Part shown: in pieces, positions 11,884 through 33,837 of the stretch
Position numbering within the stretch: position 1 is the stretch's first letter
Layout: each line of letters opens with the position of its first letter
IMG/VR virus record: IMGVR_UViG_3300033153_005812
Span: 1 to 64,000 of that record
Source of the DNA: a virus
Reading direction: 5' to 3' (one strand)
DNA length: 64,000 nt
Notes under the pieces: generated by a model
The model's input: only the letters and a program-made list of their open reading frames with translations
What the model was told of the DNA's origin: nothing
Database searches by the model: none
Program-made: the position numbers and the translations under genes

Positions 11884-11884
11884 T

Positions 11885-12190: not shown

Positions 12191-12269
12191 AGGTGAAACA
12201 ACTATAAAAGTTCTTGATGTTCAACCATACGCTATTTTAGGAAATTATAGTTAAAGGAGAAAAAGAACA

Positions 12270-12854: not shown

Positions 12855-12928
12855 AACAAAAAAGAAAACCCTGATAATTGTTGGTGAGAGAATCAATGTA
12901 AATTAATCTAAATTTTGGAGACCTGATT

Positions 12929-13993: not shown

Positions 13994-16867
13994 GTGTCGT
14001 ACAACATCAAAGCCATAAATGCTTTAGCTGAATTAGAAAGATATGGTTGGACGTATCAACCGTCTGGATCAGATGAAGTTAGATGTCTTTGTCCAGTGCA
14101 CGACGATGAACATCCCAGTCTTTTCCTTAACATAGAAAAAAATGTTTGGATCTGTCATGCTTCGCAATGTAGAGCTCATGGCGATATAATCGCACTTCTT
14201 GCTCACATCGGTAAAGTTCAACGAAAAACAATCATCGCAGATTTATTGACAAGATACCCGGATCTACAAGACATTAAAATTGTAGATCAAAAACGAATAG
14301 AAAAATTTCATCAGGCGATTTGGAAATCTGGTTCTTTCTTACAAGAATTATATAAGAGAGGAGTGACGGATGACGATATAAGAGAACAGAGAATTGGTTT
14401 CAATGGCGAGCGAATAATTATTCCTGTTTATAATTTGCAGAAGCAAGTGATCAATCTTCGTAAATATATGCCAGGAGCTCCCGGTCATGAGAAGATGAGA
14501 AATCTTAAAGGATACAGCACTTTAGCTTTATATATGCCAGAACAGTTAAAGTATGAAACAATATGGATTTGCGGTGGAGAATTGAAAGCTCTCGTAGCTA
14601 AGAGATTATTAAATCCTGAGAATATTGGAGCGACATCGGTAACTGGAGCAGAGGGTGCTTGGCATAAAACTTTTATCCCGTTCTTCAAAGACAAATTTGT
14701 TTTTATCTGTATGGATATTGATGTTGGTGGTGTAACAGCAGCGAAAACTGTTGCTCAACAAATTCTTCGAGTTGCGAAGGCTGTCTTTATAGTACATTTA
14801 CCGTTAGACGAACGAAAATATCCGAAAGGTGATATCAATGATTGGGTGGGAAGTGAGAAAGCTACTACTCAAGATTTCTTAGCTTTAATGAAAAATGCTA
14901 AGAAATATATGCCTCAAGAAATCTTAGATGAGGTAGATAATTCTGAACCCAAAAGATGTAGGTTGATAGAAGCAGGGAAAGCAAATAACATAGGGATTAA
15001 AATTCAATGCGATGCAGTTATTTCAACTATAAGTGAAGATACTCTTATAATAACGAAAGAAGTAGATATAGCTTGTACGCGAGATACTAAATTCTGTGCG
15101 TTGTGTCTTGTAAATTCTAAAGAACCAGATGAAGAAACTGGTTTAACTCGAATCAAAATACAAGCTACAAATCCGGCGATATTAGAAATGCTGAATTCAT
15201 CGCCCTCGAAATTGAAATCTGCTGTGCTATCATCTCTGAATGTTCCAGACTGTAAGTCTGCAAAAGTTAAACCATTTTCGTATTATAACATCGTGGATAC
15301 AAGGCTGACTAATCCTTTAGAAATACACAGTGAGGAAAGTGAGCATATTGTTCAACCTGCATATATAATCACCGATAAGATTTTAGATCTAAATATTCCT
15401 TACACAATTATTGGTAAGGCATATCCTCATCCCATAAATTGGGCCGGTGTTCTTCTTATTGACGCGGTAGAAGAAAAAGAAGATAGTTTATCATCTTATG
15501 TTTTCAACGATGAAGATTATGAACAATTGAAAATTTTCCGACCTGAAGAATGGTCTTATGAAGGTTTGGAAGAAAAGCTGAATTGCATTTATAAAGATTT
15601 CGCTTATAATGTAACTCGCATTTTTCAACGTCAAGACTTACATCTTGCAATGGACTTGGCTTATCATTCAGTTTTACATTTTAACTTTGAAGGTCAAGTT
15701 CAGAATGGATTGATAGATTGTCTTGTGTCTGGAGATAGTTCTCAAGGTAAAAGTGAAGTCGCTATTCGTCTCATACAACATTATAAATTAGGAATGAGAC
15801 ACGATTGTGGAGGTGCTACGATATCTGGTCTTCTTGGAGGAGTAGAACAGATGGGAAACAAGTGGTTCGTTAAGTGGGGTATAATTCCAATCTATGATAT
15901 GCAATTGGTTATCTTAGAAGAAATAAAAGGAGCCAGTGTTGAAGTTTTAGGTAAGCTGCGTGATATGAGAACCTCTAAAATCGCTGAGATAATGAAAATA
16001 GCACGGCGAAAAACTCATGCAAGAACTCGTATAATAATGATCTCTAATCCACGTAGTGATAGAGCTGTATCTTCTTATAGTTATGGAATAACTATTGTAA
16101 AAGAACTAATGGGTAATCTGGAAGATGTTCGCCGCTTTGATTTCGCTTTAATATTAGCTCAACAGGAAATAGATAGAAAAGTTATAAATGATTTTCAGCG
16201 AAATCAAAATATGGTAGAACCATATTATTCTTCAAAAATTTGTAAGAAAAATGTTTTATATGCGTGGACTCGAAAAGTGGATCAAATAAAGTTTGAAGAC
16301 AAATTCCGTAATTTGTGTTTAGACTATGCAAATAAATTGTGCTCCAAATTTTCTGAGTCATTGCCTCTTTGTGACAAAGGGACTATGAGACATAAATTAG
16401 CCAGGATAGCTATCGCTTTAGCTTGTAGAACTTTTAGCACTACCGATGATTACAGAATAGTATTAGTGAGAGAGTGTCATATTAAATACGCCTATAGATT
16501 TCTAAATAGAATTTATAGTGCTCCTTACTGCGGCTACGATGGTTATTCTAAAGCAGAACGACAACATTCGCAATTACAAAATACGGATAAGATAAAATCA
16601 GCATTAAAAGAGACAAAACATCCACGAACTTTACTCGAACAGATATTATACGCAGAGAGAATAAGTCTTGTAGATCTTCAATCGTGGTGTGAAATAGATC
16701 GAGATAACGCTCAAAGATTGTTATCTTTATTAGATCGCAATGGAGCTCTACATAGAGATTCAGGTGGATTTGAATATGTAAAATCAGCAGGCTTTATAAG
16801 TGCGTTGAAAGAAATGCTGATAGACAAAACTTTTACAGATAATGTTGCTGAAAGTTCGGAGTTCTAA
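13994..16867 (+). CDS. DNA primase (CHC2 Zn finger + TOPRIM) fused to MCM-like AAA+ helicase
   Basis: CPVHDDEHPS...CHASQC; GGELK, MDIDVGG, GDINDW; CxxxxxxCxxC Zn motif; GDSSQGKS, ATISGLLGG, ILEEI, ARTRIIMISNP, RRFD. Confidence 0.85.
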   Translation: MSYNIKAINALAELERYGWTYQPSGSDEVRCLCPVHDDEHPSLFLNIEKNVWICHASQCRAHGDIIALLAHIGKVQRKTIIADLLTRYPDLQDIKIVDQKRIEKFHQAIWKSGSFLQELYKRGVTDDDIREQRIGFNGERIIIPVYNLQKQVINLRKYMPGAPGHEKMRNLKGYSTLALYMPEQLKYETIWICGGELKALVAKRLLNPENIGATSVTGAEGAWHKTFIPFFKDKFVFICMDIDVGGVTAAKTVAQQILRVAKAVFIVHLPLDERKYPKGDINDWVGSEKATTQDFLALMKNAKKYMPQEILDEVDNSEPKRCRLIEAGKANNIGIKIQCDAVISTISEDTLIITKEVDIACTRDTKFCALCLVNSKEPDEETGLTRIKIQATNPAILEMLNSSPSKLKSAVLSSLNVPDCKSAKVKPFSYYNIVDTRLTNPLEIHSEESEHIVQPAYIITDKILDLNIPYTIIGKAYPHPINWAGVLLIDAVEEKEDSLSSYVFNDEDYEQLKIFRPEEWSYEGLEEKLNCIYKDFAYNVTRIFQRQDLHLAMDLAYHSVLHFNFEGQVQNGLIDCLVSGDSSQGKSEVAIRLIQHYKLGMRHDCGGATISGLLGGVEQMGNKWFVKWGIIPIYDMQLVILEEIKGASVEVLGKLRDMRTSKIAEIMKIARRKTHARTRIIMISNPRSDRAVSSYSYGITIVKELMGNLEDVRRFDFALILAQQEIDRKVINDFQRNQNMVEPYYSSKICKKNVLYAWTRKVDQIKFEDKFRNLCLDYANKLCSKFSESLPLCDKGTMRHKLARIAIALACRTFSTTDDYRIVLVRECHIKYAYRFLNRIYSAPYCGYDGYSKAERQHSQLQNTDKIKSALKETKHPRTLLEQILYAERISLVDLQSWCEIDRDNAQRLLSLLDRNGALHRDSGGFEYVKSAGFISALKEMLIDKTFTDNVAESSEF

Positions 16868-16868
16868 G

Positions 16869-17402
16869 ATGAGAAATCTACAAGATTTAGTGCGTGAATT
16901 TAATGAAGCAAATGGATTTCCAGTCAATAGTTTGTTGCTGGATAAAAATGGACCGGCGAAAGGTCCTCTTTGGGTTTTATGGTATGTAAAGATTATAGGT
17001 TACATACTTTTGATTCTTGGTAGAATCAGTGTCTGGCTCGACAAGCTGACAACAAAATTAGGACATAGAGATCCGAGGATCTTCAGGTGTCATATTATGG
17101 TAGATGAATTGGGAGAAACTTTGGTTGCTATCTCTAATAATGATGAGATAGAAGTTGCAGATGGATTAGCTGATTTAGCTTATGTTCTATTCGGGACAGC
17201 CGTCTTACACAATATACCTTTAGAAACAATCTTCAGGGAGGTTCATCGTTCGAATTTAACGAAAGGATTTATTCCTGGCCAAGACGGTAGAATTAAAGGT
17301 CTTTATAGAACAAAGAAATATTCGCCACCGAATATCAAAGCTGCTATCTATGTTGGCAGAAAAATGAATGATGGAGGTACTACTGATGTCGTTGATAATT
17401 GA
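16869..17402 (+). CDS. MazG/PRA-PH-like NTP pyrophosphohydrolase
   Basis: LVREFNEA, DELGET, EVADGLADLAYV, EVHRSNLTK; start moved to ATG 16869. Confidence 0.8.
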   Translation: MRNLQDLVREFNEANGFPVNSLLLDKNGPAKGPLWVLWYVKIIGYILLILGRISVWLDKLTTKLGHRDPRIFRCHIMVDELGETLVAISNNDEIEVADGLADLAYVLFGTAVLHNIPLETIFREVHRSNLTKGFIPGQDGRIKGLYRTKKYSPPNIKAAIYVGRKMNDGGTTDVVDN

Positions 17403-17952
17403 AGGTTCTGATAATTTAGGTAAAACTACTTTCGCCAAGAAACTTATAAGGTATGTTTGGGATCATGATAGATATCCTTGTATGTATTCTTGGATGACAA
17501 GGCCAAATGAAGAGACATTCGACTTCTTCGAAAGTTATAAGATGATGATCAATCCTTATACAGTACAGGATAGATTTCATCTTGGGGCTTTAGCTTATCA
17601 CGAAGATAGAATCTCAAATAGCAATTTGATTAAGATCGAAGAATGGATTCGAGATATAGGTGGGTTTGTAGTTTTATTCTATGCTAAGGATGAGGACTGG
17701 TATAAAGATCAAATTGCTAAAGATAGAAGAGGCAACTTGCTTGCGAACGAAATTCTATGCAAAGGTAATTCTATTTTCACAGCTATCACTACTGGTCTTC
17801 ATCCACTACGTCCAGATTTCAAATATGCTTTTGATATTAGTGGAGGGAATTATGTTAGCGATGAAAATATCGCACGTATTGCAGAAACTTGGATGAGATA
17901 CAGACAAAGAGCAATGGAACAACTTGTTAGGATCCAGAATGAATTGGTTTGA
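17386..17952 (+). CDS. dNMP kinase-like P-loop protein
   Basis: IIEGSDNLGKTT and DRF motifs; GGAGG RBS before ATG 17386. Confidence 0.75.
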   Translation: MSLIIEGSDNLGKTTFAKKLIRYVWDHDRYPCMYSWMTRPNEETFDFFESYKMMINPYTVQDRFHLGALAYHEDRISNSNLIKIEEWIRDIGGFVVLFYAKDEDWYKDQIAKDRRGNLLANEILCKGNSIFTAITTGLHPLRPDFKYAFDISGGNYVSDENIARIAETWMRYRQRAMEQLVRIQNELV

Positions 17953-18175
17953 ACTTTTAGGTATAATTAGTTTGATTTTTGCAATAGCAGGGTCTCTATT
18001 AAATAATCGTAAAATGATTGTTTGTTTCCCTATTTGGATGATTGCAAATTTAATATGTTTTGGAATGCATCTTCAAATTATTATAACTTTAGGTCAAGGT
18101 TGGTCGCTCGCTGCGAAAGATGTGGCTTTCATGTATATTTGTATCGACGGTTATTTTCGGTGGAGAAAAAAGTAG
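17939..18175 (+). CDS. Small multi-pass membrane protein (PnuC-like half)
   Basis: Three hydrophobic segments, CFPIWMIAN, GYFRW terminus. Confidence 0.55.
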   Translation: MNWFELLGIISLIFAIAGSLLNNRKMIVCFPIWMIANLICFGMHLQIIITLGQGWSLAAKDVAFMYICIDGYFRWRKK

Positions 18176-18176
18176 A

Positions 18177-18752
18177 ATGGAATCGCATTTACAATTACAA
18201 CTTTTAGAAGCTTTTGTAGGAGCTACAAAAGGAGACAAGACAATGGAAGATCTAATTAAGAGAGTAATTCTGCAGTCTTTTAGAGACATCAAGAAAGCGG
18301 CGAGGAAAAATCAGAAGTGTCAGAGAAAAGGATGCGGCTGTGTTATTTTAGAAATCAACCTTCGAGAAAGTTTGATTCAACATTTCGCAGCCGTAAATGG
18401 ACCCTCTGGTCCTAAGAATAAATGTTCTAATATCAAAGGAGCCTGCGGCTGTTCACATGCTGAACCGAGAGCTATTATGAAGTATCTAAAGCAACGAAAG
18501 CCCAGAATTAAGAGGGATTATATTAAGACTATTCTACTCACAACTTTTTCTTCGTGTGTGAATTGTGCTAATATCATCGTTGATTCTGGCGTCATAGATG
18601 TAGTTATATATGAGTTCCTTGCTACTCACTGGGCGACTCCGCCTCACGATGCAAAAAGTATGCTTGATCGTAGTCTTTTGCATTGGTCGAAGAAAGAGAT
18701 TATAAAAGACAAGGATAATAAGTTGATTAAAAAATGGCTTTTCGAGAATTAA
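18177..18752 (+). CDS. dCMP deaminase-family protein
   Basis: HAE and SCVNC Zn motifs; start uncertain. Confidence 0.8.
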   Translation: MESHLQLQLLEAFVGATKGDKTMEDLIKRVILQSFRDIKKAARKNQKCQRKGCGCVILEINLRESLIQHFAAVNGPSGPKNKCSNIKGACGCSHAEPRAIMKYLKQRKPRIKRDYIKTILLTTFSSCVNCANIIVDSGVIDVVIYEFLATHWATPPHDAKSMLDRSLLHWSKKEIIKDKDNKLIKKWLFEN

Positions 18753-21944: not shown

Positions 21945-21978
21945 AACCAGAGGGTATGGAAACCCTCTGGTTATTTTT
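21945..21978 (+). terminator. Intrinsic terminator
   Basis: AACCAGAGGGT-6-ACCCTCTGGTT then ATTTTT. Confidence 0.85.
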
Positions 21979-22811: not shown

Positions 22812-23882
22812 ATGGATTATGTAGATCTAAACAAGTTATGGCATGAGACACTTTTCGACGTTAATCTTCGCGGCCATATACTTAACAGCAGAGTCGGATA
22901 TTGTAAAGAGATTATAGGTTTTCAAACAACGCTAACTTATCCTCTTCATAATATCCTCTTTGCTCCAAAGCGAAAATTTTCGTTGGCCTATGCTTGTGCT
23001 GAAATGCTCTGGTATCTTTCTGGTACTGGTAGTATCAAAATGATTCAGGCTTATGCTCCACAGTATGAGAAATTTGCTGAAGATGGATGGGCCTACGGAG
23101 CATACGGACATCGATGGAATCATAATCCTGGCTTTGTAAATGCGAAAGCCTCTCTAATAGAAGGTCTTACGAGGCAAGATTGCGAAATCGACATCGAAAA
23201 TCAACTCTCTGCTTTGGTGCATCTATTGAGGGCAGATCCAAATACCCGTCAAGCTATCATGACGATGTGGGATAGCGGTGATCTTATTCATGCAATCGCA
23301 AGGGATCATAAAGACCTCCCTTGTACTCTTTCATTGATGTTTTTTGTCCGAGACAACAGACTTCATCTTGTAGCTACAATGAGATCTAACGATGCGTGGC
23401 TCGGTCTTCCGTATGATATCTTTTGCTTCACAACTCTACAAAGGATTATTGCAGCGGAGCTTGGATTAGAATTAGGAGCTTATATTCACCAAGCTGGAAG
23501 TGAGCACATCTACGAAAAGAATCAGGAGAAGATAGATGAAATCCTTAGGATAGAAAGTGAATCGAAGTGGTCCGGTGAAGGAGCGATTCTGCTATATCCT
23601 TATCCTCTAAACTGGAATCACAAACGGCGAGACTACGATTTGCAGCACAATGTTAAAGCTGCTCTTTCATTGGAAAAGGAGATTCGAAAAGCGACAATGG
23701 ATGAACATTGTTTAGCGAAAGGTATTGCAGGGAATCAAAAAGCATGGAAAGAAATTGATCCTCTTTTCAAAGATCTTGTTCTTGGTTGTGCAACGAAATG
23801 GACTCATGTTCCGAATGATTGGTTTGATAATCCCCTCTACGCAAGTTGTCAACGATATACGGAGAATCTAAATGAAGCTTGA
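22812..23882 (+). CDS. Thymidylate-synthase-family enzyme, probably dCMP hydroxymethylase/methylase
   Basis: TRQA, DLPC, MRSND, GLPYD (Asp in place of the TS Asn), GSEHIY. Confidence 0.85.
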   Translation: MDYVDLNKLWHETLFDVNLRGHILNSRVGYCKEIIGFQTTLTYPLHNILFAPKRKFSLAYACAEMLWYLSGTGSIKMIQAYAPQYEKFAEDGWAYGAYGHRWNHNPGFVNAKASLIEGLTRQDCEIDIENQLSALVHLLRADPNTRQAIMTMWDSGDLIHAIARDHKDLPCTLSLMFFVRDNRLHLVATMRSNDAWLGLPYDIFCFTTLQRIIAAELGLELGAYIHQAGSEHIYEKNQEKIDEILRIESESKWSGEGAILLYPYPLNWNHKRRDYDLQHNVKAALSLEKEIRKATMDEHCLAKGIAGNQKAWKEIDPLFKDLVLGCATKWTHVPNDWFDNPLYASCQRYTENLNEA

Positions 23883-24726
23883 TAAAATTCCATTCGGAGA
23901 ATGCACGTCTAAAGATCTCGCCGATTATATGAATGAGCGACACAGTATTTGGATGAGGAGAGATAAAGGTGAATGGAAACCATGGACAACCGATGTGATT
24001 CTCCAACAATATAAATTCACTAACGTATTTCGACAGCTCGACAAAGGTACTGTTGCTCTACGAAAAATGTTAAAGAGTCAAACAGATCCTATTCTTATTC
24101 TTTTCAATATTATTTGGTATAGATATTTTAACTGGTACAAACATGCTGAAGAGCTCGGCTTCGTCAATGATTATTCACAACTTGAAGACTTCATAATAAC
24201 CAAAGGGAGAAGATGCGATAAAATTTTTACTGGAGCTTGGATGACAACTGGAGTTTCTTGTGAAGATAAACATATAACCTATCTTCGAGCTTGTAAAGAA
24301 GCTTGGGATAAACGAGATATGCTCTATCATCTTGTTTCTTCTTCTTCTAAATTAGAAACGGTTTGCGTACTCCTCAAAGATTTATATATGGTGGGTAGAT
24401 TCTTAGCTTATGAATTAGCTTGTGATTTAAGGTTCACAAAACTTCTTGATGAAGCGACAGATATATTGACGTTCGCAAATCTTGGTCCTGGAGCTCAAAG
24501 AGGACTTCGGCGATTAGGAATGCCGCATAAAAATCAAAAAGAAGGTCTTACTTCTATGCGAAAATTATACGATGTTCTTATGGAGCATTATCTCAGCTAT
24601 TATATTGTTAACGCTTCTTGGCCGTTTGAACTGCGAGAGGTAGAACATAATCTTTGTGAGTTTGATAAATATATGCGAACAAAAAATGGAGAGGGACATC
24701 CACGAAGTAAGTTTCCTGGAGTGTAA
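23872..24726 (+). CDS. aGPT-Pplase1 / 5-hydroxymethyl-pyrimidine DNA kinase-like helical protein
   Basis: ERHSIW..R..G...PWTTDVILQQYKFTNVFRQLD, GRFLAYELACDL, GPGAQRGL, EHNLCEFDKY. Confidence 0.8.
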   Translation: MKLDKIPFGECTSKDLADYMNERHSIWMRRDKGEWKPWTTDVILQQYKFTNVFRQLDKGTVALRKMLKSQTDPILILFNIIWYRYFNWYKHAEELGFVNDYSQLEDFIITKGRRCDKIFTGAWMTTGVSCEDKHITYLRACKEAWDKRDMLYHLVSSSSKLETVCVLLKDLYMVGRFLAYELACDLRFTKLLDEATDILTFANLGPGAQRGLRRLGMPHKNQKEGLTSMRKLYDVLMEHYLSYYIVNASWPFELREVEHNLCEFDKYMRTKNGEGHPRSKFPGV

Positions 24727-24727
24727 A

Positions 24728-24904
24728 ATGGATATCGATGAAGTTAAAAAATGGTTGCAAAGTTATTTGAGGTTAGAAAATCATGGTCATGCCGGTCGTC
24801 TTTTATCTGAAGAATATAAAGAATATCGGAAAGAAGATCCAAAACCAGATTGTAATTTAATGACATGGTGCGTGAAAAAAGCATTGGAAAAATTAAATAG
24901 TTGA
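24728..24904 (+). CDS. Small hypothetical protein
   Basis: GGAG RBS then ATG 24728. Confidence 0.45.
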   Translation: MDIDEVKKWLQSYLRLENHGHAGRLLSEEYKEYRKEDPKPDCNLMTWCVKKALEKLNS

Positions 24905-24912
24905 GGTGTAAT

Positions 24913-25704
24913 ATGAACATAGGAATAATCGGTTGCGGTGTTGTTGGAACTGCTTTGAAAAATGGTTTTAGATTCTTAGAACACGAAGTGTCTATCGCAG
25001 ATCCTAAGTTTGGTACGAGCACTTTAGATGTCTGCCATACTGAAATAGTATTTATTTGTGTTCCTACAAACTGTAACTTAAATGGGAGTTGTGATCTTTC
25101 TATTGTTAAGAGAGTTCTACAACATCTCAGAGCTTATCGGTATAACGGAATCGTAGTGTTAAAATCTACTGTAGTACCGGGAACAACTGAAAAGCTATCG
25201 AAAGAATTCAATAGAGAAATAGTTTTTGTCCCAGAGTTTCTTCACGAAAGATATGCTACAGAAGATTTTATTTATCACCAAGATATATTGGTGATAGGAA
25301 CTGATGATAAAGAGTTAAGAAAGGTAGTTGCGAATATTCATAAAGACCTACCAAAGAGAGTTGTGACTTGTTCTAAAACAGAAGCAGAATTGGTTAAGTA
25401 TTTCAATAATGTTTACAACGCAACTCTGATAACTTTCGCTAATAGTTTTTACGAAGTGTGTGTTGGACTCGGTGTTAATTACGACAATGTTAAATCGATC
25501 GTTACATTGAGGGATCATATAAACGATGTGTATCTCGATTGTAATAATTCGTTAAGAGGATTTGGCGGCCCTTGTTTACCTAAAGATACGAAAGCATTAG
25601 CTTTTCTTGCAGAACAATTGAATACCGATGTTAAGTTTTTTGATATGCTTTTATCAGAAAATGTTAAGTACGAAACAACAGTGTTGAAAGGAATGCGATC
25701 ATGA
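24913..25704 (+). CDS. UDP-glucose/GDP-mannose dehydrogenase family (short form)
   Basis: GCGVVG, ICVPT, KSTVVPGT, PEFL, AELVKY, GFGGPCLPKD. Confidence 0.92.
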   Translation: MNIGIIGCGVVGTALKNGFRFLEHEVSIADPKFGTSTLDVCHTEIVFICVPTNCNLNGSCDLSIVKRVLQHLRAYRYNGIVVLKSTVVPGTTEKLSKEFNREIVFVPEFLHERYATEDFIYHQDILVIGTDDKELRKVVANIHKDLPKRVVTCSKTEAELVKYFNNVYNATLITFANSFYEVCVGLGVNYDNVKSIVTLRDHINDVYLDCNNSLRGFGGPCLPKDTKALAFLAEQLNTDVKFFDMLLSENVKYETTVLKGMRS

Positions 25705-26648
25705 ATATATTAGTAACAGGTAGTGAAGGTTCTTTGATGCAATTTGTCATTCCTCTGTTGGTTACTAAGAAATACAATGTAACTGGTATAGATATCAATG
25801 AAGGCGGTGGATCAAAAACCAAACGCAATTATGAGTTTATTAACGCAGATTGTAGAGAGATTACAGAACTCGAAGATGTTTTTCATAATAGATTTTTCGA
25901 TTATGTAATTCATAGTGCTGCTACTATTTACGGTGTTGTAGGATTTAATAAATTCGGTGCAGATATAATTTCTAATGATCTTATTTCTACTGCGAATACG
26001 CTACGATGTAGTCTTACACATGAAATAAAAAAGTTCGTCTTCATAAGTTCTTCGATAGTCTATGAGCAAGTACCGAAAAATTATAATAACATAGATCAAT
26101 TTCCAGCTCCGAAAACCTATTATGGTCTTTCAAAATTTGTTGGTGAAAAATTATGTCGAGCATATCGAGAGCAATATAATCTGCCTTATATTATATGGAG
26201 ACCGTTTAATATAATTACTCCATACGAGAAAGCTCAAGCGACACAGGGATTTAGTCATGTCTTTGCAGATTTTATTCAACAAATTGTAATTGATCGCAAA
26301 GAAACTATCGGTATTCTTGGCGATGGTAGACAAGTTAGATGCTTCACTTGGATAAAAGATGTGGCTGAAGCTATTGCAGATTTATCTTTTGGCTCTGAAC
26401 AAGGCGAATTCAATCTTGGGAATGTCGAACCTCTAACTATGACCGATTTGGCTGTATTGATTTATGTGACTGCTCAACGTTTGAACTTGATACCTAAAGA
26501 ACAAGATCTGAAATTCTATCATACACCGCCTATGGTCAACGATGTTAGATATAGAGTACCTTACATGGAAAGAACTGAAAAGGTGTTCAATTGGCGAGCA
26601 AAATTGAAGATCAAAGATTCAATTGAAAAATGTTTGAAGGAAATGTGA
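25701..26648 (+). CDS. NAD-dependent nucleotide-sugar epimerase/dehydratase/decarboxylase (extended SDR)
   Basis: ILVTGSEG, SSS..VY, YGLSK, GDGRQVRCFTWIKD. Confidence 0.9.
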   Translation: MNILVTGSEGSLMQFVIPLLVTKKYNVTGIDINEGGGSKTKRNYEFINADCREITELEDVFHNRFFDYVIHSAATIYGVVGFNKFGADIISNDLISTANTLRCSLTHEIKKFVFISSSIVYEQVPKNYNNIDQFPAPKTYYGLSKFVGEKLCRAYREQYNLPYIIWRPFNIITPYEKAQATQGFSHVFADFIQQIVIDRKETIGILGDGRQVRCFTWIKDVAEAIADLSFGSEQGEFNLGNVEPLTMTDLAVLIYVTAQRLNLIPKEQDLKFYHTPPMVNDVRYRVPYMERTEKVFNWRAKLKIKDSIEKCLKEM

Positions 26649-26651
26649 TCG

Positions 26652-27437
26652 ATGGATAATCAAAATCTAATACTCTCATTAAATGAAGCTATATCGTCTT
26701 CAAATATAAGATTAGGAGTTTTAGACTTTAGAAAATTGCAAAGTTTAGTGGGAGCAACCCCAATTCAAATGTCTGTAAAAGTTTTTTGGGGTGAAGATAT
26801 AACTGTAATTTTACCAGAATATATTTCTTGTCGCCTTTTCTTAGATGAATTTTTTGAAAAAGACTTAACAAAGTTTATCATAGAACACTTAAATTCTGGT
26901 ATGACTTTCATCGATGTAGGAGCTCATATCGGTTACTTTTCTTTATTAAGTTCAGTTTTAGTTGGAAATACAGGTCAAGTCCATTCATTCGAGCCTACGA
27001 AAGATGTGTTTCAGATTTTACAAAAGAATTGTTCAAACAAAGAAAATATCACAATGAATAGTGAAGCAGTTTTTTCGAAAGTCGAAAGACTTGTATTGAA
27101 CACCTACGGACTAAAATGGTCGGCGTTCAATTCTTTATTCGTTCCGAGAATATTAGGGATCTTATCAAAAGTGAAGTGTAAAAGAATGGAGGTTCAAACA
27201 ACTACGTTAGATCAATACTGTGATGATAAACATATTCAGCCTGATTTTATTAAAATCGATGCAGAGAAATCGGAATTGAATATTTTAATAGGAGCAGAAA
27301 AAACGCTTAAAAAAGACCATCCGATTATTTCTGTAGAAAGCGGGGATGAAGAAAATGATGCACAGATTATAGACTTTATGCGAGCCTTGAATTATTCATA
27401 TCAAAAGGTCTTAAACAGTAATTTAATTTTCGTTTGA
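26652..27437 (+). CDS. FkbM-family SAM methyltransferase
   Basis: FIDVGAHIGYFS, VHSFEP, TTLD, FIKIDAE. Confidence 0.9.
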   Translation: MDNQNLILSLNEAISSSNIRLGVLDFRKLQSLVGATPIQMSVKVFWGEDITVILPEYISCRLFLDEFFEKDLTKFIIEHLNSGMTFIDVGAHIGYFSLLSSVLVGNTGQVHSFEPTKDVFQILQKNCSNKENITMNSEAVFSKVERLVLNTYGLKWSAFNSLFVPRILGILSKVKCKRMEVQTTTLDQYCDDKHIQPDFIKIDAEKSELNILIGAEKTLKKDHPIISVESGDEENDAQIIDFMRALNYSYQKVLNSNLIFV

Positions 27438-27476
27438 ACTAATATAAGTTCTGCATAAAAATAAGGATTTCTGATT

Positions 27477-28316
27477 ATGAAAATTATTATTCCTACAAAA
27501 TCAAGAACAGATCTTCAATTTACTGCTAATCAACTTATGAGAGCAAATATACCTGATCAATACGAATGCTTTCTGGTAGTTCCTCGAAACGAAAAGGACA
27601 ACTACGCAAAAAATTCTATAAGCGGTTTTCGAACTATCTCTGTAGATTGTGAGGGAATTAACAATGTTCGTCAATATATCATGGAACATTGTAAGGTCGA
27701 AGATAATAAGATACTAATGATAGATGATGATTTGAGATTCTTTTATCGACCTTGCATAGAAGATGTTTCATTGTTCCAAGCTACTGGGGATCAAGTACTT
27801 GAAATGATTCAATGGTTAGAAAGCCAACTTGATAAATTCGCTCATTGTAGTATCCCTGCTCGGACACAAAATTTTCAATTGACCCGTCGTATAGAACGAG
27901 CAGAAAGTTTCGAACTACAAACAGTTCGCCCTTATCGCCTTTACGGTTTTCGCCAAGACATAGTGTTAGGAGAAGAGTTAGATTTTCATGCTGGATTGCG
28001 AATAAATACGATGGATGATTTCCACATGACTCTTAACCTTTTAGAACTCGGTTATCCTAACATCATATCTTGTAGATGGGCACACGATCAATGCACTTCT
28101 AATTCTCGTGGTGGGTGTTCTACTTATCGTGATTTGGAATTATTAAGAGTGTGTGCTTTGAATCTTAAAGAAAACCATCCTCAAGTTGTTAAGATTGTGC
28201 ACAAAGAAACAAGCTCTTCTTGGGGAGGGACACCTAATAATCCAGTAACAAGAACAGACGTTAGAATACAATGGCAAAAGGCTTTAGGAATAAGAGCAAC
28301 TGAGAGCAAACTATAA
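27477..28316 (+). CDS. GT-A glycosyltransferase, TET/JBP-associated (TAGT/GREB1-like) type
   Basis: IIIPTKSR, MIDDDLRF, DDFHMTL..LELGYPN, SRGGCSTYR, VRIQWQKA. Confidence 0.75.
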   Translation: MKIIIPTKSRTDLQFTANQLMRANIPDQYECFLVVPRNEKDNYAKNSISGFRTISVDCEGINNVRQYIMEHCKVEDNKILMIDDDLRFFYRPCIEDVSLFQATGDQVLEMIQWLESQLDKFAHCSIPARTQNFQLTRRIERAESFELQTVRPYRLYGFRQDIVLGEELDFHAGLRINTMDDFHMTLNLLELGYPNIISCRWAHDQCTSNSRGGCSTYRDLELLRVCALNLKENHPQVVKIVHKETSSSWGGTPNNPVTRTDVRIQWQKALGIRATESKL

Positions 28317-28322
28317 CACTCA

Positions 28323-28391
28323 CCTATAGGGTCGGCCTACTCCCGCAGAGGCTCTGAGCGATCGCTGGGGAAGCCGATATTAGGCTGTAAA
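28323..28391 (-). repeat. Dispersed structured repeat, copy C
   Basis: 28339-28380 identical to the cores of copies A and B. Confidence 0.95.
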
Positions 28392-28393
28392 CT

Positions 28394-29317
28394 ATGCTTT
28401 ACATACTAATCTCAAAAATCGAGCTTAGAACCTTCAAAATTTGGGCAGGACACTTAACTGCTATCAGAGAGGTTTTAGACATAAATGGAAGTCGTTATCG
28501 ACAAATAGATATACTCCATGCAAAGCAAAAGACATTCAAAACAAACGATATTATCATCAATATTGGAAATCACCAATACGCTGGTTCTCAATTCTTAAAT
28601 GAATTAGCCGAGAGTGTTTCAAAAGCAGGTAGAACAGTTTTCTTTATGGATGATTACACGGCTCCTCCAGCAACACAATTACGTAAAGCTCTCACTAAAA
28701 GTTCTAATCTTTTAGTGACAAACATCAAAGATTTGAGCATCTTAACGCAACGAAAATCTCTTCAGCATTTTGAACCTGTCTATGTAAATCTAAACAAAGC
28801 TTCTTTCAAAAAACTCCCTCTCAAAGCTCCACAAGTTCCTGGCAGCTTTATTTATTGGGGTTCTTGTCGACGAGGAAGAGAACAAAGTTTCTATCGTTAT
28901 TTCAAACCAAATCTTTATCCGCTTTATATTTCTTCGAGTGATAGGGGGCACAATAAGTATTGTAATTTATACATAAATTATAGACCGTTAGAAAAAATGC
29001 TGCTACCTGAGGACTTACAAAAATATGGATTCACAGTAAATATTCGTGATAAGAAGCAACCAAAGATGGCTCCAGCAAATAGATTTTATGAAGCTATAGG
29101 TGCTGGACTTCCAATTTTCTTTGACCATGAATGTATTCCACGAATTGAAACTCCACTCTGCGTAAAAGACTATATTGTTTCTGAAGCAGAACAACTGCTT
29201 GAAAAAGATCTGCAAAGAACACAAGTAGAACAACGGAAGCTCTGGGGGCAACGTAATTATCGAATAGAGTTAGTGAATGAATTAACCGAAATATTTTTTA
29301 AGCATGGTATTTCATAA
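28394..29317 (+). CDS. GT-B glycosyltransferase resembling T4 DNA beta-glucosyltransferase
   Basis: VFFMDDY, FIYWGSCRRGRE, NRFYEAIGAGLPIFFD parallel the T4 BGT motifs (YLFTD, IYGGSFRSGQRE, LRVWE...MLID), recalled from memory. Confidence 0.65.
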   Translation: MLYILISKIELRTFKIWAGHLTAIREVLDINGSRYRQIDILHAKQKTFKTNDIIINIGNHQYAGSQFLNELAESVSKAGRTVFFMDDYTAPPATQLRKALTKSSNLLVTNIKDLSILTQRKSLQHFEPVYVNLNKASFKKLPLKAPQVPGSFIYWGSCRRGREQSFYRYFKPNLYPLYISSSDRGHNKYCNLYINYRPLEKMLLPEDLQKYGFTVNIRDKKQPKMAPANRFYEAIGAGLPIFFDHECIPRIETPLCVKDYIVSEAEQLLEKDLQRTQVEQRKLWGQRNYRIELVNELTEIFFKHGIS

Positions 29318-29853
29318 TGAATTATGGACTCAACTATTTTGAACACACATTACGCAAAATGAGCATGACAGCAGAAGATATTTGTCAACGAAGATGGAAA
29401 TTTATAACTCCTACGAAAGCAATACGAATTTTAGACTATGGTTGTGGAGTAGGTTGGTTCCGTGCTTTCAAACCAGATAAGAACCTCATTGTAGATACTT
29501 ACGATGTAGGGAATTACCCTCAAACGGGTATAAATGAAATGGAATATGATCTTATTTGTTTTTGGGACTCTTTAGAGCATATTCCAAATTTAGATGAAAT
29601 AAATTGGCTATTAACAAGAACCGAATTTGTTGCCATTTCAATCCCTATATTTCTTGGTGATATGCAGCAAGAAGAATTTAGAAAATGGAAGCATTATCGC
29701 CCAAATGAACACTTACATTATTTCACACTACAGACATTAGCGAATTTCTTTGAAGAACGTGGGTTTGAAATGTTCGAGAAAAATCAAAACGAATGTCCTC
29801 CACGAGAAGATGTTTGGTCAATTTTGTATAGGAGAAAACGTAATGCAAGTTAG
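29317..29853 (+). CDS. Class I SAM-dependent methyltransferase
   Basis: ILDYGCGVG, FWDSLEHIP, EHLHYFT. Confidence 0.85.
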   Translation: MNYGLNYFEHTLRKMSMTAEDICQRRWKFITPTKAIRILDYGCGVGWFRAFKPDKNLIVDTYDVGNYPQTGINEMEYDLICFWDSLEHIPNLDEINWLLTRTEFVAISIPIFLGDMQQEEFRKWKHYRPNEHLHYFTLQTLANFFEERGFEMFEKNQNECPPREDVWSILYRRKRNAS

Positions 29854-32209
29854 AAAACGTGACGGACGAATTGTTGACTTCGACTCATATCGTATTCTCA
29901 AAGCTATGAAAGGAGCTTTTACTGAACTTAACATCGATATTCTTTCAGGTGGAAAAATAGATGCTCTAACTGCAAAAGTGATTGACTTTCTTCCAAGTGT
30001 GAAAATCATAGATATTGAAGTGATTCAAAACACTGTAGAGAAGATCTTAATGGAAGAAGGATATTACGAAGTTGCAAAAGCATATATTCTTTATCGTCAA
30101 CAAAGAACCTCGCTTCGAGAGATAGAACCAGATCCAAATGCTATTTCAGATTACATTCATGCCGCGAAATACGCTCGTTACATCCCAAGTAAAAAGCGAA
30201 GAGAGACTTATCACGAAACCATTAAAAGAGTCGAAATAATGCACAAGAAAAAGTATCCTCATCTCACAGCAGAAATTGGAGATGCTTTTCAATTTGTTCA
30301 TGATAAATTTGTCCTCCCGTCTATGCGGAGTATGCAATTTGGAGGCAAAGCTATCGAGAGACGAAATGCTCGGATGTATAATTGTAGTTTCACTCTCGTA
30401 GATCGGCCTCGTGTTTTTGGCGATATGATGTACTTGCTTCTTTGTGGATGTGGAGTAGGATTCAGTGTTCAAAAGCGACATGTCGCAAGACTTCCATTAC
30501 TCAAAGTAATAGATTTCAACTTAACTTATTTTCATGATGTTAAAGATTCAATCGAAGGATGGGCAGATGCGGTGAACGCTCTAATAGATTCTTTTCTACG
30601 AGGGTATCATATAGAATTTAATTTTGAAGCAATACGTCCACCCGGAAGTATTCTTAATAGTGGTGGAAAAGCTCCTGGGCATGTTTCGTTAAAAGAATCT
30701 CTCGAAGCTACAAGACAGATTTTGCTTTTAGCTCAAGGGAGAAAATTGAAGCCAATAGAATGTCACGATATTATCTGTCATCTGAGTAAAGCAGTTCTTG
30801 CAGGCGGAATTCGACGAAGCAGTTTAATTTCATTGTTCTCTGCAGATGATGACGATATGTTGTACTGTAAAGATAGAGCTAATTTTGATTTTCAACTTAA
30901 GAATCCACAGCGAGCTTTAGCGAATAACAGTGTTGTCTTAGACAGAGAGAATTACACCTTTGCAGATTTCGCAAGAATTCTACATTTGAATAAAGTAAAT
31001 CATGGTGATCCAGGCTTTGTATTCTTAGAAGATTTCGATACTGGTGTTAATCCTTGCGGGGAGATTGGCATCGACCCTGTCTTAAAAGTAGCTATGAGAG
31101 ATACCTATGACGATGTATGGTCGAAGAAAAATAAAGATTCGGCTCTCGTAAATCAATGCAAGACAGGTTTTGGATTTTGCAACCTTGTAGAAGTCAACGC
31201 TGCAAAGTGTCGAACTTACGAACAATTTTTAGAGGCTTGTAAAGCTGCGAGTTTCATCGCTACTTTGCAAGCGGGTTATACGGACTTTCCTTATCTCGGA
31301 GAAGTAACTGAAAAAATCGTACAACGGGATGCTCTTATCGGTGTAAGTATAACAGGGATGATGGACAATTCTTGGATCTTTGATGAGGGTTATTTAGAAG
31401 GAGGAGCTGAAATAGTAAAAGCTACGAATGCGAAGACAGCAAAATCGATTGGAATCAATCCTGCGAAACGATGCACTTGTATAAAACCAAGTGGAACAGC
31501 GAGCTTAGAACTCGGATGCGTAGGGAGCGGAATCCATCCCCATCATTCAAAGCGATACTTTCGGAGGATTACTGCAAATCCTTTGGAGCCAGTCGTACAG
31601 TATTTCAGAAAAGCTAATCCCCAGATGGTCGAGACAAAACCAAACGGAGATCTCTGTATAACGTTCCCGGTTAAAACAGATGGTCTAACTGTGAATAATA
31701 TATCAGCAAGAGAATTTCTTGATAAGGTCTTTCGCACTTATAAAGGCTGGATTCTTACTGGTCACAGACAAGGTCAAACGCACAATGTAAGTTGTACTCT
31801 TGTTGTTGACGATCAAGAATGGGAAGAAGCTTTTGATTATATTTGGAATCACAGAGATAAAATCAGTTCGATGACTTTTTTACCAAAACAAAGCGATAAA
31901 CAAATTCCGTTCTGCCCCAGAGAATCAGTTACGACAGTCAAAGATATCGCTCACTTCGATTCTTTAGTAAAAGGCTATAAACCTGTAGACTATTCTAAAA
32001 TGATCGAAGAAGAAGATGTGACTGTGAAAGACGCCGCCTGTAGTGGTATGGTTTGCGATTTAGGTCTCGATTTTTGTAGTGGAATTGGCCTACGCGTCTT
32101 TCAAAATGAATTTGATTCTCGTATAAAGACCTTCACATATCGAGGTTTGACATTTGAACTATATGAACAAAGAAACGGATATTTTATTGCTAAGCGAATT
32201 ATGGAGTGA
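29843..32209 (+). CDS. nrdJ: Class II (B12) ribonucleotide reductase, RTPR-like, with N-terminal ATP cone
   Basis: MQVRKRDG ATP cone (GGAG RBS at 29831), MYNCS, GCGVGFSV, GGIRRSS, NPCGEI, CNLVE, TCIKPSGT, CSGMVC. Confidence 0.92.
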   Translation: MQVRKRDGRIVDFDSYRILKAMKGAFTELNIDILSGGKIDALTAKVIDFLPSVKIIDIEVIQNTVEKILMEEGYYEVAKAYILYRQQRTSLREIEPDPNAISDYIHAAKYARYIPSKKRRETYHETIKRVEIMHKKKYPHLTAEIGDAFQFVHDKFVLPSMRSMQFGGKAIERRNARMYNCSFTLVDRPRVFGDMMYLLLCGCGVGFSVQKRHVARLPLLKVIDFNLTYFHDVKDSIEGWADAVNALIDSFLRGYHIEFNFEAIRPPGSILNSGGKAPGHVSLKESLEATRQILLLAQGRKLKPIECHDIICHLSKAVLAGGIRRSSLISLFSADDDDMLYCKDRANFDFQLKNPQRALANNSVVLDRENYTFADFARILHLNKVNHGDPGFVFLEDFDTGVNPCGEIGIDPVLKVAMRDTYDDVWSKKNKDSALVNQCKTGFGFCNLVEVNAAKCRTYEQFLEACKAASFIATLQAGYTDFPYLGEVTEKIVQRDALIGVSITGMMDNSWIFDEGYLEGGAEIVKATNAKTAKSIGINPAKRCTCIKPSGTASLELGCVGSGIHPHHSKRYFRRITANPLEPVVQYFRKANPQMVETKPNGDLCITFPVKTDGLTVNNISAREFLDKVFRTYKGWILTGHRQGQTHNVSCTLVVDDQEWEEAFDYIWNHRDKISSMTFLPKQSDKQIPFCPRESVTTVKDIAHFDSLVKGYKPVDYSKMIEEEDVTVKDAACSGMVCDLGLDFCSGIGLRVFQNEFDSRIKTFTYRGLTFELYEQRNGYFIAKRIME

Positions 32210-33837
32210 AGATGAAACTTAATCAAGTGATTTATGGTGATAATAGAGAGAAGCTCAAAGAGTACCCCGATAATTTCTTTGATGGAATTATCACTGATCC
32301 TCCTTACGGTATGGGGTTTATGGGGAAGACATGGGATACTTTTAATTCTCAGATAATTCAAGAATCAAAAGAAAACTATGATAATACGCCGTCCAAAAAT
32401 CTACAAGGAATAGGACCAGATGGAAAAGTTAGACGAATAAATAAGCCAAGAGGTTCTATCGCAGAAGTAGCTGGTTCTTATGATTTATCAGTTAATGGAC
32501 AGATTCGGTTTCAACAATGGTTTTACGGAATAGCTGTTGAGATGTTAAGAGTGGCTAAACCCGGAAGTTTCTTATTTTGTTTTGGTGGAACACGAACTTA
32601 TCACAGAGTTGCTTGTGCAATAGAAGATGCCGGATGGATTATCAGAGATCAAATAATGTGGCTCCATGGAATGGGTTTTCCAAAATCTACAGATATAAGT
32701 AAAGCTATTGATAAAGAAGCTGGAGCAGAACGAAAAGTTATTGGTGAATATAAAGTTGGTGGAAATGCTTTGACTCCTCTTAATGAAAAAGGAGGGATGA
32801 CTTTTTCAACAGGAGCAAAAAATAGTCCTTCTGGTTATCTGCCAACAACTGTGCCAGCAACGAATGACGCAAAACGATGGGACGGATATGGAACAGGATT
32901 AAAACCAGCATGGGAACCGATTATCGTTGCGATGAAGCCGTTAGAAAAAGGATTAACGTATGCACAAAACGCTAAGAAGTGGGGTGTTGCTGGATTGAAT
33001 ATTGATGGTGGCCGGGTTGGAACGAATCCAGGTTATAAATACAACGCAGATAAAAACGGTGTAACTTTTCATGGACAACAAGGAGAAAGGATAAAACAAA
33101 CAGCAGAGAAAAAAGGTCAACAATTTATTGAGAGCACAAAAGGTCGTTGGCCAGCGAACGTAATTCTAAGTCATTCACCAAATTGTGTTTGTATCGGTGA
33201 AAAAGAAATTGGAGATGGGAATAGCAAAACACGCATAGTAAAAGATGCAAAATCTTCTTGGGCTAATAGTTGTCAAGATATAAATGTAATAGCTTACGGA
33301 AAAGAAACTATAGAAATTTGGGCTTGTGTGCCTAATTGCCCTATACGGATTATGGATAATCAAAGTGGACAAGCTGGTGGAGGTAGTCATAAATATCATA
33401 AAGAAACCTCCAGCAAAACTTGTCATACAAACAATGTAAGAAAAGATAGCTTTATAGGACAAGAAATTGGTATAGGTGATTCAGGTGGAGCGTCGCGATT
33501 CTTTTATTGTGCGAAAGCAAGTAAAGCGGAGAAGGAAGAAGGTTTGATGGGATTTATTGAATGTGCGAAGTGTGAAAGATTCGAGTCTAAAACACATACA
33601 AGAAAAGGTGTCAAAGAAAAGTGTTATCGTAATAATCATCCAACCGTAAAACCCCTCGCTCTTATAAAATATCTTTGTACTCTATTAAACATGCCGAATA
33701 GAGATCAAGTTATCCTTGATCCATTTTGTGGGAGTGGTACGACGCTCGTAGCTTGTAAAAATCTTGGTATAAATTATGTCGGTATTGAACAAGATATGAA
33801 TTTTTGTTTAATAGCGACAGCCAGAACCGGAGACTAA
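32206..33837 (+). CDS. DNA N6-adenine/N4-cytosine methyltransferase (beta class)
   Basis: TDPPY near the N-terminus; HPTVKP and LDPFCGSGTT near the C-terminus. Confidence 0.93.
   Translation: MKMKLNQVIYGDNREKLKEYPDNFFDGIITDPPYGMGFMGKTWDTFNSQIIQESKENYDNTPSKNLQGIGPDGKVRRINKPRGSIAEVAGSYDLSVNGQIRFQQWFYGIAVEMLRVAKPGSFLFCFGGTRTYHRVACAIEDAGWIIRDQIMWLHGMGFPKSTDISKAIDKEAGAERKVIGEYKVGGNALTPLNEKGGMTFSTGAKNSPSGYLPTTVPATNDAKRWDGYGTGLKPAWEPIIVAMKPLEKGLTYAQNAKKWGVAGLNIDGGRVGTNPGYKYNADKNGVTFHGQQGERIKQTAEKKGQQFIESTKGRWPANVILSHSPNCVCIGEKEIGDGNSKTRIVKDAKSSWANSCQDINVIAYGKETIEIWACVPNCPIRIMDNQSGQAGGGSHKYHKETSSKTCHTNNVRKDSFIGQEIGIGDSGGASRFFYCAKASKAEKEEGLMGFIECAKCERFESKTHTRKGVKEKCYRNNHPTVKPLALIKYLCTLLNMPNRDQVILDPFCGSGTTLVACKNLGINYVGIEQDMNFCLIATARTGD

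Follow-up and report, generated by a model that had tools for sequence, protein, structure and literature searches.

What base does a phage build when genes for nucleotide-sugar metabolism are lodged between its base-synthesis genes and two glycosyltransferases (GTs) of DNA-modifying types? The question is posed by a gene cluster at positions 22812-29853 of the first 64 kb (hereafter the window) of the IMG/VR virus record IMGVR_UViG_3300033153_005812, a record of 75,914 bp with direct terminal repeats and a completeness of 100%. The cluster comprises eight tightly packed open reading frames (ORFs) on the plus strand, here called g1 to g8 (Table 1). Neighbouring ORFs overlap or are separated by no more than 77 bp, except where one further ORF of 58 amino acids (aa) intervenes. 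The reading we prefer, to which we give slightly better than even chances, is that of a T4-style cytosine-replacement and DNA-glycosylation island equipped with sugar-tailoring genes of its own. That the island makes glycosylated 5-hydroxymethylcytosine (5hmC) is the firmer part and appears probable from the genes present; that g3, g4 and g5 shape the DNA glycan is close to an even call, leaning if anything towards yes.

An earlier note on this DNA had named eight contiguous genes here and proposed hypermodification of a hydroxymethyl-pyrimidine together with phage-encoded sugar tailoring. All eight are present and co-oriented at the coordinates of Table 1, profile searches and the fold of g7 agree with their naming, and the broad proposal holds up in that the tailoring genes lie between base-synthesis genes and two DNA-type GTs. 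Judged from the sequence, the layout is operon-like: the hairpin upstream of the cluster is the sole convincing terminator-like site between 20.5 and 32.7 kb and none lies within the cluster, in a promoter and terminator scan whose overall counts were at chance level. The GC content of the g3-g5 stretch is 0.32-0.35, against about 0.37-0.40 across most of the genome. A megablast search of the 7-kb cluster against 50,697 phage records found no match.

Table 1 Genes of the cluster and associated features in the window
Feature	Position	Strand	Basis
MazG-like NTP pyrophosphohydrolase, candidate dCTPase	16842-17402	+	PRA-PH E 1.6e-13; phrog_671 E 5e-18
P-loop protein, Walker A GSDNLGKTT	17368-17952	+	phrog_761 thymidylate kinase E 9e-6, residues 2-81
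dCMP deaminase	18120-18752	+	dCMP_cyt_deam_1 E 1.2e-7; phrog_174
Terminator-like hairpin, upstream of the block holding the cluster	21945-21972		11-bp stem, 6 GC pairs, T-run
g1, thymidylate synthase homolog (predicted dCMP hydroxymethylase)	22812-23882	+	Thymidylat_synt E 1.3e-28
g2, aGPT-Pplase clade-1 protein, 284 aa	23872-24726	+	PF18723 HMUDK_hel E 7.6e-45
58-aa ORF between g2 and g3	24729-24904	+	Read from sequence
g3, short NDP-sugar 6-dehydrogenase	ORF 24901-25704, likely start ATG 24913	+	PF03721 and PF00984
g4, extended short-chain dehydrogenase/reductase, 4-epimerase-like	25701-26648	+	Pfam Epimerase E 7e-40
g5, FkbM S-adenosylmethionine methyltransferase	26652-27437	+	PF05050 (Methyltransf_21) E 5e-21
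g6, TAGT-family GT-A	27477-28316	+	PF20691 E 3.4e-8
g7, GT-B with T4 beta-glucosyltransferase fold	28394-29317	+	AlphaFold2 model with Foldseek and VIA
g8, small class-I S-adenosylmethionine methyltransferase	29317-29853	+	PF13489 (Methyltransf_23) E 1.5e-15

Predicted identity of the modified base

The first gene of the cluster encodes a thymidylate synthase (TS) homolog. Its best match in the PDB is the CMP hydroxymethylase MilA (E 2.3e-29), and the catalytic Cys (LPC) is present and aligned with those of M. tuberculosis ThyA and MilA. Within the TS family, N177D makes the enzyme specific for dCMP; an acidic side chain in place of L143, found in the T4 and MilA enzymes, goes with hydroxymethylation, admitting water so that a hydroxymethyl rather than a methyl product is formed; and D169N is the mark of 5-hydroxy-dCMP synthases (PMC13326640). 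g1 has Asp at the position of E. coli ThyA N177 (LGLPYDI) and again at the L143 position (HKDLPC), three residues ahead of the catalytic Cys as in MilA, and it keeps Asp at D169 (MRSND), as do all 70 aligned homologs. Because of this combination, g1 is predicted to be a dCMP hydroxymethylase that makes 5-hydroxymethyl-dCMP (5hm-dCMP), and the base to be 5hmC; the hydroxymethyl part of the earlier claim is thus retained, and the pyrimidine is narrowed to cytosine by these signature residues.

The signature separates this phage and a few relatives from the bulk of the family. The alignment took in 70 TS homologs, from g2-bearing loci, from the window and from three phages that are cultured or in GenBank, and the N177 position is Asn in 64 of them, including PaMx11 gp51 and PhiJL001 gp24. 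Asp occurs there only in the window and in the related loci L003, L004/L005 and L009, within a distinct MilA-like motif. A further relative, G001, which was found through its FkbM gene, also has a TS of the Asp type.

A different C5 group on cytosine, such as methyl as in Xp12 or hydroxyl as in RB69, with the GTs acting there or elsewhere, is very improbable in our estimate. The TS family is chemically versatile, and synthases of 5-hydroxycytosine (5hoC) have been recognised only recently; against this, position D169 of g1 is Asp and not the Asn diagnostic of 5hoC synthases, for which reason chemistry of the RB69 gp48 type was rejected, the L143 position is Asp as in the T4 and MilA hydroxymethylases, and a methyl group would offer no acceptor to two DNA GTs. 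In the complete genome no C5-DNA methyltransferase was detected (no PF00145 match, with a working positive control), and the hydroxymethyl group would therefore be made before replication. A Tet_JBP search of the genome also gave no match, but its positive control was likewise silent.

PF18723 covers the product of the second gene, g2, over its whole length, and a Walker A motif is missing. The protein was rejected as a kinase or as the source of a phospho-link, having no P-loop and consisting entirely of a helix-hairpin-helix (HhH)-like helical domain, so that of its earlier label, aGPT-Pplase1 or hydroxymethyl-DNA-kinase-like, the assignment to aGPT-Pplase clade 1 stands and the kinase falls away. 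According to Lee et al., the 5-hydroxymethyldeoxyuridine (5-hmdU) DNA kinases are P-loop proteins, the aGPT-Pplases are HhH glycosylase-like and SP10 gp186 fuses both, a fusion that probably explains the Pfam name HMUDK_hel. By tblastn, g2 matches M6 ORF055 (gp55), PaMx11 gp50, PhiJL001 gp19 and an AN14 gene annotated 'aGPT-Pplase clade 1', with E values from 1e-29 to 5e-38. An AlphaFold2 model built from a 55-sequence alignment (pLDDT 93.0) suggests an HhH DNA-glycosylase-like fold. Its top PDB match is PaMx11 gp46, or PUGT (8z2n; Foldseek E 4e-3; VIA Z 12.5, rmsd 4.0, 221 residues aligned), followed by HhH DNA glycosylases and queuine-salvage enzymes at Z of about 10, all of these Z values being only moderately discriminating for an all-helical protein.

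PUGT is a clade-2 glycine:DNA transferase whose Cys247 attacks C6 (PMC11472151). The motif L-C262-E263-F-D-K-Y-x-R is invariant across 76 g2 homologs, and a weak pairwise alignment (E 0.21) places C262 of g2 opposite Cys247 of PUGT. We suggest that g2 would most likely flip a 5-substituted pyrimidine out of the DNA and attack C6. g2 adjoins the TS homolog, the same arrangement as PaMx11 gp50-gp51, and as read from the signature residues this phage clade pairs a clade-1 aGPT-Pplase with a cytosine-type synthase. As a separate observation, the pairing of TS with a clade-1 aGPT-Pplase recalls PaMx11 and PhiJL001 (Mesyanzhinovviridae).

Glycosyltransferases and candidate sugar-tailoring enzymes

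Both GTs that the earlier note had described, a TAGT-like GT-A and a T4-like GT-B, are borne out. g6 scores 34.1 bits with PF20691, the model of the TET-associated glycosyltransferases (TAGT), above the curated threshold of 27.5, and matches phrog_842, 'beta-glucosyl-HMC-alpha-glucosyltransferase', at E 1.9e-34. By tblastn it finds the beta-glucosyl-HMC-alpha-glucosyltransferase genes of T-even-like phages and PhiJL001 gp22, and its DDD motif lies within MIDDDLRF.

The assignment of g7 comes from its fold. No Pfam, PHROG or NCBIfam match was obtained, tblastn against phage records gave no hit, and a profile of 16 g7 homologs matched none of the PDB sequences. An AlphaFold2 model from the 16-sequence alignment is of high confidence (pLDDT 93.8, pTM 0.90); Foldseek ranks 1-6 are all T4 beta-glucosyltransferase (BGT; E 2.5e-8), and VIA places T4 BGT first (Z 21.0, rmsd 3.4, 295 of 307 residues), ahead of T4 alpha-glucosyltransferase (Z 17.8) and other GT-B enzymes (Z of at most 17.3). 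On this model g7 is a GT-B of the T4 BGT fold, and D87, R159, R162, R230 and E233, invariant in the homolog alignment, are candidate catalytic residues.

Profile searches of the complete 75.9-kb genome, with positive controls, found no member of the GT1 or GT2 families and no NDP-sugar pyrophosphorylase. g6 and g7 are the only GTs detected genome-wide, and thus appear to be the sole recognisable users of a tailored sugar donor. TAGT is the only GT in L004/L005 and G001, and g7-like genes occur without a TAGT hit in L012, L015, L024 and L073; because either occurs alone in relatives, the base is probably a direct acceptor for each GT type. A side observation concerns a g7-like protein, P0015 (51% identity), and an FkbM-like protein, P0139 (48%), each recorded on a single 3657-bp ENA contig. 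They may lie on the same contig, in which case the FkbM-GT arrangement would recur.

What might supply these GTs is encoded between g2 and g6. g3 probably starts at ATG 24913, since the database copy has 263 aa and a GAGGTG ribosome-binding site precedes that codon. It is a UDP-sugar dehydrogenase by family, as had been claimed, but of a short form without the C-terminal UDP-binding domain: it has the Rossmann and central domains only, ends about 40 residues past the catalytic Cys, and covers positions 73-302 of the 413 in TIGR03026 (157.7 bits against a cut-off of 189.8). The catalytic motif is GGPCLPKD, and an alignment of 17 sequences shows no variation at its Cys, Lys and Asp. A broken or truncated gene was rejected, given that g4 overlaps the g3 stop codon and that the best 120 g3 homologs are all similarly short, at about 260-317 aa and 51-63% identity. 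Relatives of g3 are encoded in about 490 IMG/VR and about 500 metagenome stretches, and by sequence these short dehydrogenases are a large conserved family of aquatic viral and metagenome contigs. A literature search found nothing on how the short dehydrogenase binds its substrate.

The neighbourhoods of g3 relatives were compared in the best 80 of about 500 loci from each of the IMG/VR and metagenome scans (160 in all; L079-L239). A short-chain dehydrogenase/reductase (SDR) homologous to g4 is present in 95 of these 160 g3-type loci, often directly downstream. Among 137 flanking proteins of 50 IMG/VR g3-type loci, the Pfam tally comprises SDRs (46), GT1, GT2, DegT aminotransferases and carbamoyltransferases, and the neighbourhoods thus resemble polysaccharide-type clusters.

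The best PDB sequence matches of g4 are Pal 6bwl, the T. maritima UDP-hexose 4-epimerase 4zrm and 6zl6, which we take to be the B. cereus UDP-glucuronate 4-epimerase. A Glu after the catalytic Ser/Thr (T-S-E, upstream of YxxxK) is typical of SDR decarboxylases and 4,6-dehydratases. In g4 no Glu follows the catalytic-position Ser; its ISSSIVY aligns with ISTSSVY and FSSTGAIY of the 4-epimerases 6zl6 and 4zrm, respectively, and its YGLSK with the catalytic motif. It reaches no NCBIfam equivalog cut-off, and the ArnA and UXS models score far below theirs. We therefore rejected g4 as a UDP-xylose synthase or UDP-glucuronate decarboxylase and consider an epimerase, for instance one converting UDP-glucuronic acid (UDP-GlcA) to UDP-galacturonic acid (UDP-GalA), the more likely identity. 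The earlier choice between epimerase and decarboxylase thereby tips towards an epimerase-like enzyme, and the xylose-type pentose proposed with it loses its footing, ISSSIVY taking the place of a T-S/D-E motif. Single-sequence IMG/VR scans with g4 and g5 gave no match.

The FkbM methyltransferase and the second methyltransferase named before are likewise recovered, as Methyltransf_21 and Methyltransf_23 matches. g5 also matches TIGR01444 (E 1.7e-26) and, weakly, V. cholerae RfbT (E 2.7e-4), an O-antigen sugar methyltransferase, and is a candidate sugar O-methyltransferase. Its closest homolog, 58% identical, is encoded in G001 at a different position (L241:2576-3358; L243), directly upstream of a helicase gene and about 10 kb from TS-g2-TAGT. 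No dehydrogenase or SDR was found in this 39.7-kb fragment, and FkbM therefore does not seem tied to uronic-acid synthesis. g8 matches phrog_6564; it does not occur in L003, L009 or G001, where the last GT gene abuts the ribonucleotide reductase (RNR) gene, and it may be unrelated to the pathway.

A variable slot in related loci

Scanning IMG/VR with g2 returned 74 loci, in which a TS homolog lies close by in 66, TAGT in 27 and a g7 homolog in six; none of the 74 holds a homolog of g3, g4, g5, g8 or the 58-aa ORF. In the window, g3, g4 and g5 occupy the space between g2 and TAGT, and g8 that between g7 and RNR. The closest relative, L003 (IMGVR_UViG_3300029811_000036; proteins 66-79% identical), has after g2 a divergent TAGT, a radical SAM/SPASM enzyme of 359 aa, an unknown 315-aa protein, a g7 homolog and RNR. 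Its slot (L003:3154-5943) may likewise specify a 5hmC hypermodification that has yet to be described. L005 (IMGVR_UViG_3300042731_002831; 11003-13279) follows g2 with TAGT, a short methyltransferase of the MT-A70 type, 131 aa long, and an uncharacterised protein of 297 aa, and L009 with TAGT and the g7 homolog only. G001 (IMGVR_UViG_3300032020_000026) has the TS, the clade-1 aGPT-Pplase, TAGT as its only GT, and RNR. The tailoring slot thus holds other genes or none in five relatives, and such swapping next to DNA GTs is to be expected of a DNA-modification island that is diversifying. The variants (radical SAM/SPASM, MT-A70, none) also provide a natural comparison series.

The same comparison feeds the most serious alternative, a split of functions in which g1, g2, g6 and g7 make glucosyl-5hmC from host UDP-glucose and g3, g4, g5 and g8, acquired as a cassette with no tie to that pathway, alter nucleotide-sugar pools, virion proteins or the glycans of the host surface. 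Pairs of a short dehydrogenase and an SDR are common in polysaccharide-type neighbourhoods without DNA-modification genes, the FkbM homolog of G001 stands outside its DNA-modification cluster, g8 has homologs in the Pseudomonas phages D3 and PMG1, and the lower GC of g3-g5 is as expected for a recent insertion. Set against these points, the genome has no detected GT of a non-DNA type to use a tailored sugar, the cassette sits in the exact slot of the relatives' tailoring enzymes with no terminator-like site between, and an epimerase that supplies the donor of a DNA GT has experimental precedent. We regard such a split as unlikely, although it keeps an appreciable share of our belief, and retain the integrated glycosylation island as the preferred reading.

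That island has no counterpart among the loci compared: the sugar genes combined with the DNA-modification core were found in none of 234 related loci (74 g2-type and the best 160 g3-type). The earlier claim of a new pathway is justified to the extent that the combination is unmatched in these loci and in the phage records; it was overstated in that hexuronic acid on 5hmC and epimerase-dependent DNA GTs are published. What would be new here is sugar methylation and clade-1 chemistry on cytosine.

Proposed pathway and genome setting

Upstream of the cluster lie genes that could feed it (Table 1), with a family-A polymerase (PolA) gene also just upstream. The MazG-like gene is kept in the relatives L004/L005, L009 and G001, and by analogy its product is a candidate dCTP depleter in the role of T4 gp56. 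The P-loop protein has no Pfam, NCBIfam or PDB sequence match and shows no BLASTP similarity to PaMx11 gp49, the 5-hmdU DNA kinase (5-HMUDK); homologs 38-58% identical occupy the same position in relatives, and it is a weak candidate for the dNMP kinase acting on 5hm-dCMP. The phospho-linked sugar of the earlier note thereby finds no enzyme here, g2 being no kinase and the only nearby P-loop protein being unlike PaMx11 gp49.

We propose the following route. The MazG-like enzyme would lower dCTP while g1 converts dCMP to 5-hydroxymethyl-dCMP, which the P-loop protein and host kinases would raise to the triphosphate; the family-A polymerase would incorporate 5hmC into DNA, and the dCMP deaminase would maintain the dTTP supply. 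After replication, g6 and g7 would transfer sugars onto the 5-CH2OH group, giving either two kinds of monoglycosylated 5hmC, as with the alpha- and beta-GT of T4, or a disaccharide, as in T2 and T6. The donor is probably other than plain host UDP-glucose, which is the weakest step of the proposal: g3 may oxidise a host NDP-hexose to a uronic acid, g4 may epimerise the g3 product, e.g. UDP-GlcA to UDP-GalA, and g5 may O-methylate the sugar, on the nucleotide sugar or on DNA. Cytosines would then carry bulky glycans, possibly methylated and with a negative charge, that shield the DNA from restriction enzymes and from other defences aimed at DNA. In its most specific form, an O-methylated uronic-acid mono- or disaccharide on 5hmC made partly via the short dehydrogenase, with clade-1 enzymes that act on both cytosine and uracil derivatives, the proposal is tentative and we lean against it.

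Several observations weigh against the proposal as a whole. Every step rests on sequence, fold and gene context. The g3/SDR pair is otherwise found in polysaccharide-type clusters, and none of the best 160 g3-type loci has a TS, g2, TAGT or g7 homolog. Characterised UDP-glucose dehydrogenases bind UDP through a domain that is missing from g3, so that the substrate assigned to g3 is a candidate only, and the specificity of g4 is matched by no curated model. FkbM may not act on DNA sugars, and our literature search gave no publication that connects FkbM methyltransferases with phage DNA modification. The homologs of g8 in D3 and PMG1, at 8.6-9.1 kb of those genomes, gave in this analysis no link to hypermodification genes, and the kinase assignment of the P-loop protein is weak. 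Characterised members of the g2 family are, moreover, confined to thymidine-modifying phages, and M6 gp55 is dispensable for the in vitro reaction.

This last point leads to a thymidine-type pathway, in which the base would be 5-hydroxymethyluracil (5hmU) and g2 together with a DNA kinase would attach a sugar or another group, by way of a phosphorylated intermediate or following its formation, as M6, PaMx11 and ViI do. The occurrence of the g2 family in phages M6 and PaMx11, the uracil type of 64 TS homologs that lie beside g2 homologs, and the presence of a dCMP deaminase and a P-loop protein are all in keeping with it. Yet position N177 carries Asp instead of Asn in g1 and in five relatives, the window has no clade-2 aGPT-Pplase and no pyridoxal-phosphate (PLP), radical-SAM or FAD partner, and the P-loop protein does not resemble PaMx11 gp49. 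Nor is the dCMP deaminase a pointer to uracil, T4 encoding one too. We consider this pathway quite improbable. The thymidine clusters of M6, PaMx11, ViI, SP10 and PhiW-14 share with the present one a g2 homolog beside TS, and differ from it in that here the TS is of the cytosine type, tailoring is by GTs, and no P-loop 5-HMUDK homolog, clade-2 transferase or PLP, radical-SAM or FAD enzyme is present. Membership in the 5-HMUDK/clade-2 pathway was rejected, because the kinase and the clade-2 enzyme are lacking and the synthase is of the cytosine type.

For glycosylated 5hmC, the obvious comparison is with the T-even phages, among which T4 has the dCMP hydroxymethylase gp42, the dCTPase gp56, the dNMP kinase gp1 and an alpha- and a beta-GT, and T2 and T6 a beta-glucosyl-HMC-alpha-glucosyltransferase. 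As proposed, the island would function in the T-even manner, joined to elements of the 5hmC GT clusters of Pyle et al. and to a single gene of the thymidine hypermodification type. The present phage is alike in having a cytosine hydroxymethylase-type TS, a pyrophosphatase, a candidate kinase and a dCMP deaminase, as well as one GT of BGT fold and one of the family of the T2/T6 second-sugar transferase. It differs in its 76-kb siphovirus-like genome, which is not that of a T4-like myovirus, and g7 resembles BGT by fold only, with no detectable sequence similarity. The T-even phages also lack the clade-1 aGPT-Pplase, the nucleotide-sugar dehydrogenase, the SDR and the one or two methyltransferases present here, and with these genes added, a donor other than plain UDP-glucose is probable.

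Pyle et al. (bioRxiv 10.1101/2023.12.21.572611) showed that some phage DNA GTs rely on an accompanying epimerase and that hexuronic acid can be placed on 5hmC, and they noted GTs beside ThyS genes as well. With subclass II (epimerase and GT) of that work our cluster shares a TAGT-like GT-A, a BGT-like GT-B and a partner SDR epimerase as the presumed source of the donor, and by analogy a uronic-acid sugar on 5hmC is plausible here. In the published clusters, however, 5hmC comes from a C5-methyltransferase and TET, whereas the present phage has a pre-replicative TS homolog, and no C5-methyltransferase was found. On this ground, membership in the TET-associated clusters was rejected. The phage further adds its own dehydrogenase, a clade-1 aGPT-Pplase and FkbM, which is absent from the text of that paper.

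Two other systems were compared. For the arabinosyl-5-hydroxycytosine of RB69 and DLP3 (PMC13326640), the likeness lies in a dCMP-acting TS, a thymidylate-kinase-like kinase, a phage-made sugar donor and several DNA GTs; their donor arises via an arabinose-5-phosphate isomerase, a kinase/uridylyltransferase and a phosphatase, in contrast to the dehydrogenase and SDR here, and g1 has no D169N. The hypermodification cluster of SP-15 contains a UDP-glucose dehydrogenase and the phage has uronic acid on its DNA (PMC5977210). In SP-15, however, the modification is on uracil and runs by way of a dihydroxypentyl linker plus a phosphodiester; the phage has a full sugar-activation set and teichoic-acid-type transferases, and none of these was found in ours.

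Hypermodifications decide which restriction, CRISPR and type IV defences a phage escapes, and they are a source of enzymes for 5hmC labelling. Within 7 kb, the operon-like island raises three points, namely methylation of a DNA glycan, the role of the clade-1 aGPT-Pplase, and the activity and substrate of the short dehydrogenase. If the proposal is true, the clade-1 step would be general to glycosyl- and amino-acid-type hypermodification pathways.

The island lies in a genome in which nearly all genes are on the plus strand. A replication and nucleotide-metabolism block extends over about 6.9-34.7 kb, packaging and head genes over about 47-58 kb, and tail genes, including the tape-measure gene, lie at the start of the window and in the final 12-12.9 kb or so of the genome; the genome end beyond the window holds tail genes only. 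From its tape-measure gene the phage looks siphovirus-like. Its major capsid protein (56979-58211) is 41% identical to that of the 76-kb Vibrio Mardecavirus phages, whose replication genes, by contrast, are unrelated and which have ThyX and different polymerases, and in its sequence relationships the genome is a mosaic. A search for tRNA genes found none. Two further genes have unusual architectures. The product of 32206-33837 is an N6/N4 DNA methyltransferase of 543 aa in which residues 26-537 match a profile of only 221 positions, so that its domain appears to be split by an insertion of about 300 aa, and the gene implies a second DNA modification, separate from that of the cluster. The gene at 53234-55480 encodes a MuF-like head-morphogenesis protein of 748 aa, in which the MuF match covers only about residues 2-333 and the C-terminal 400 residues are extra.

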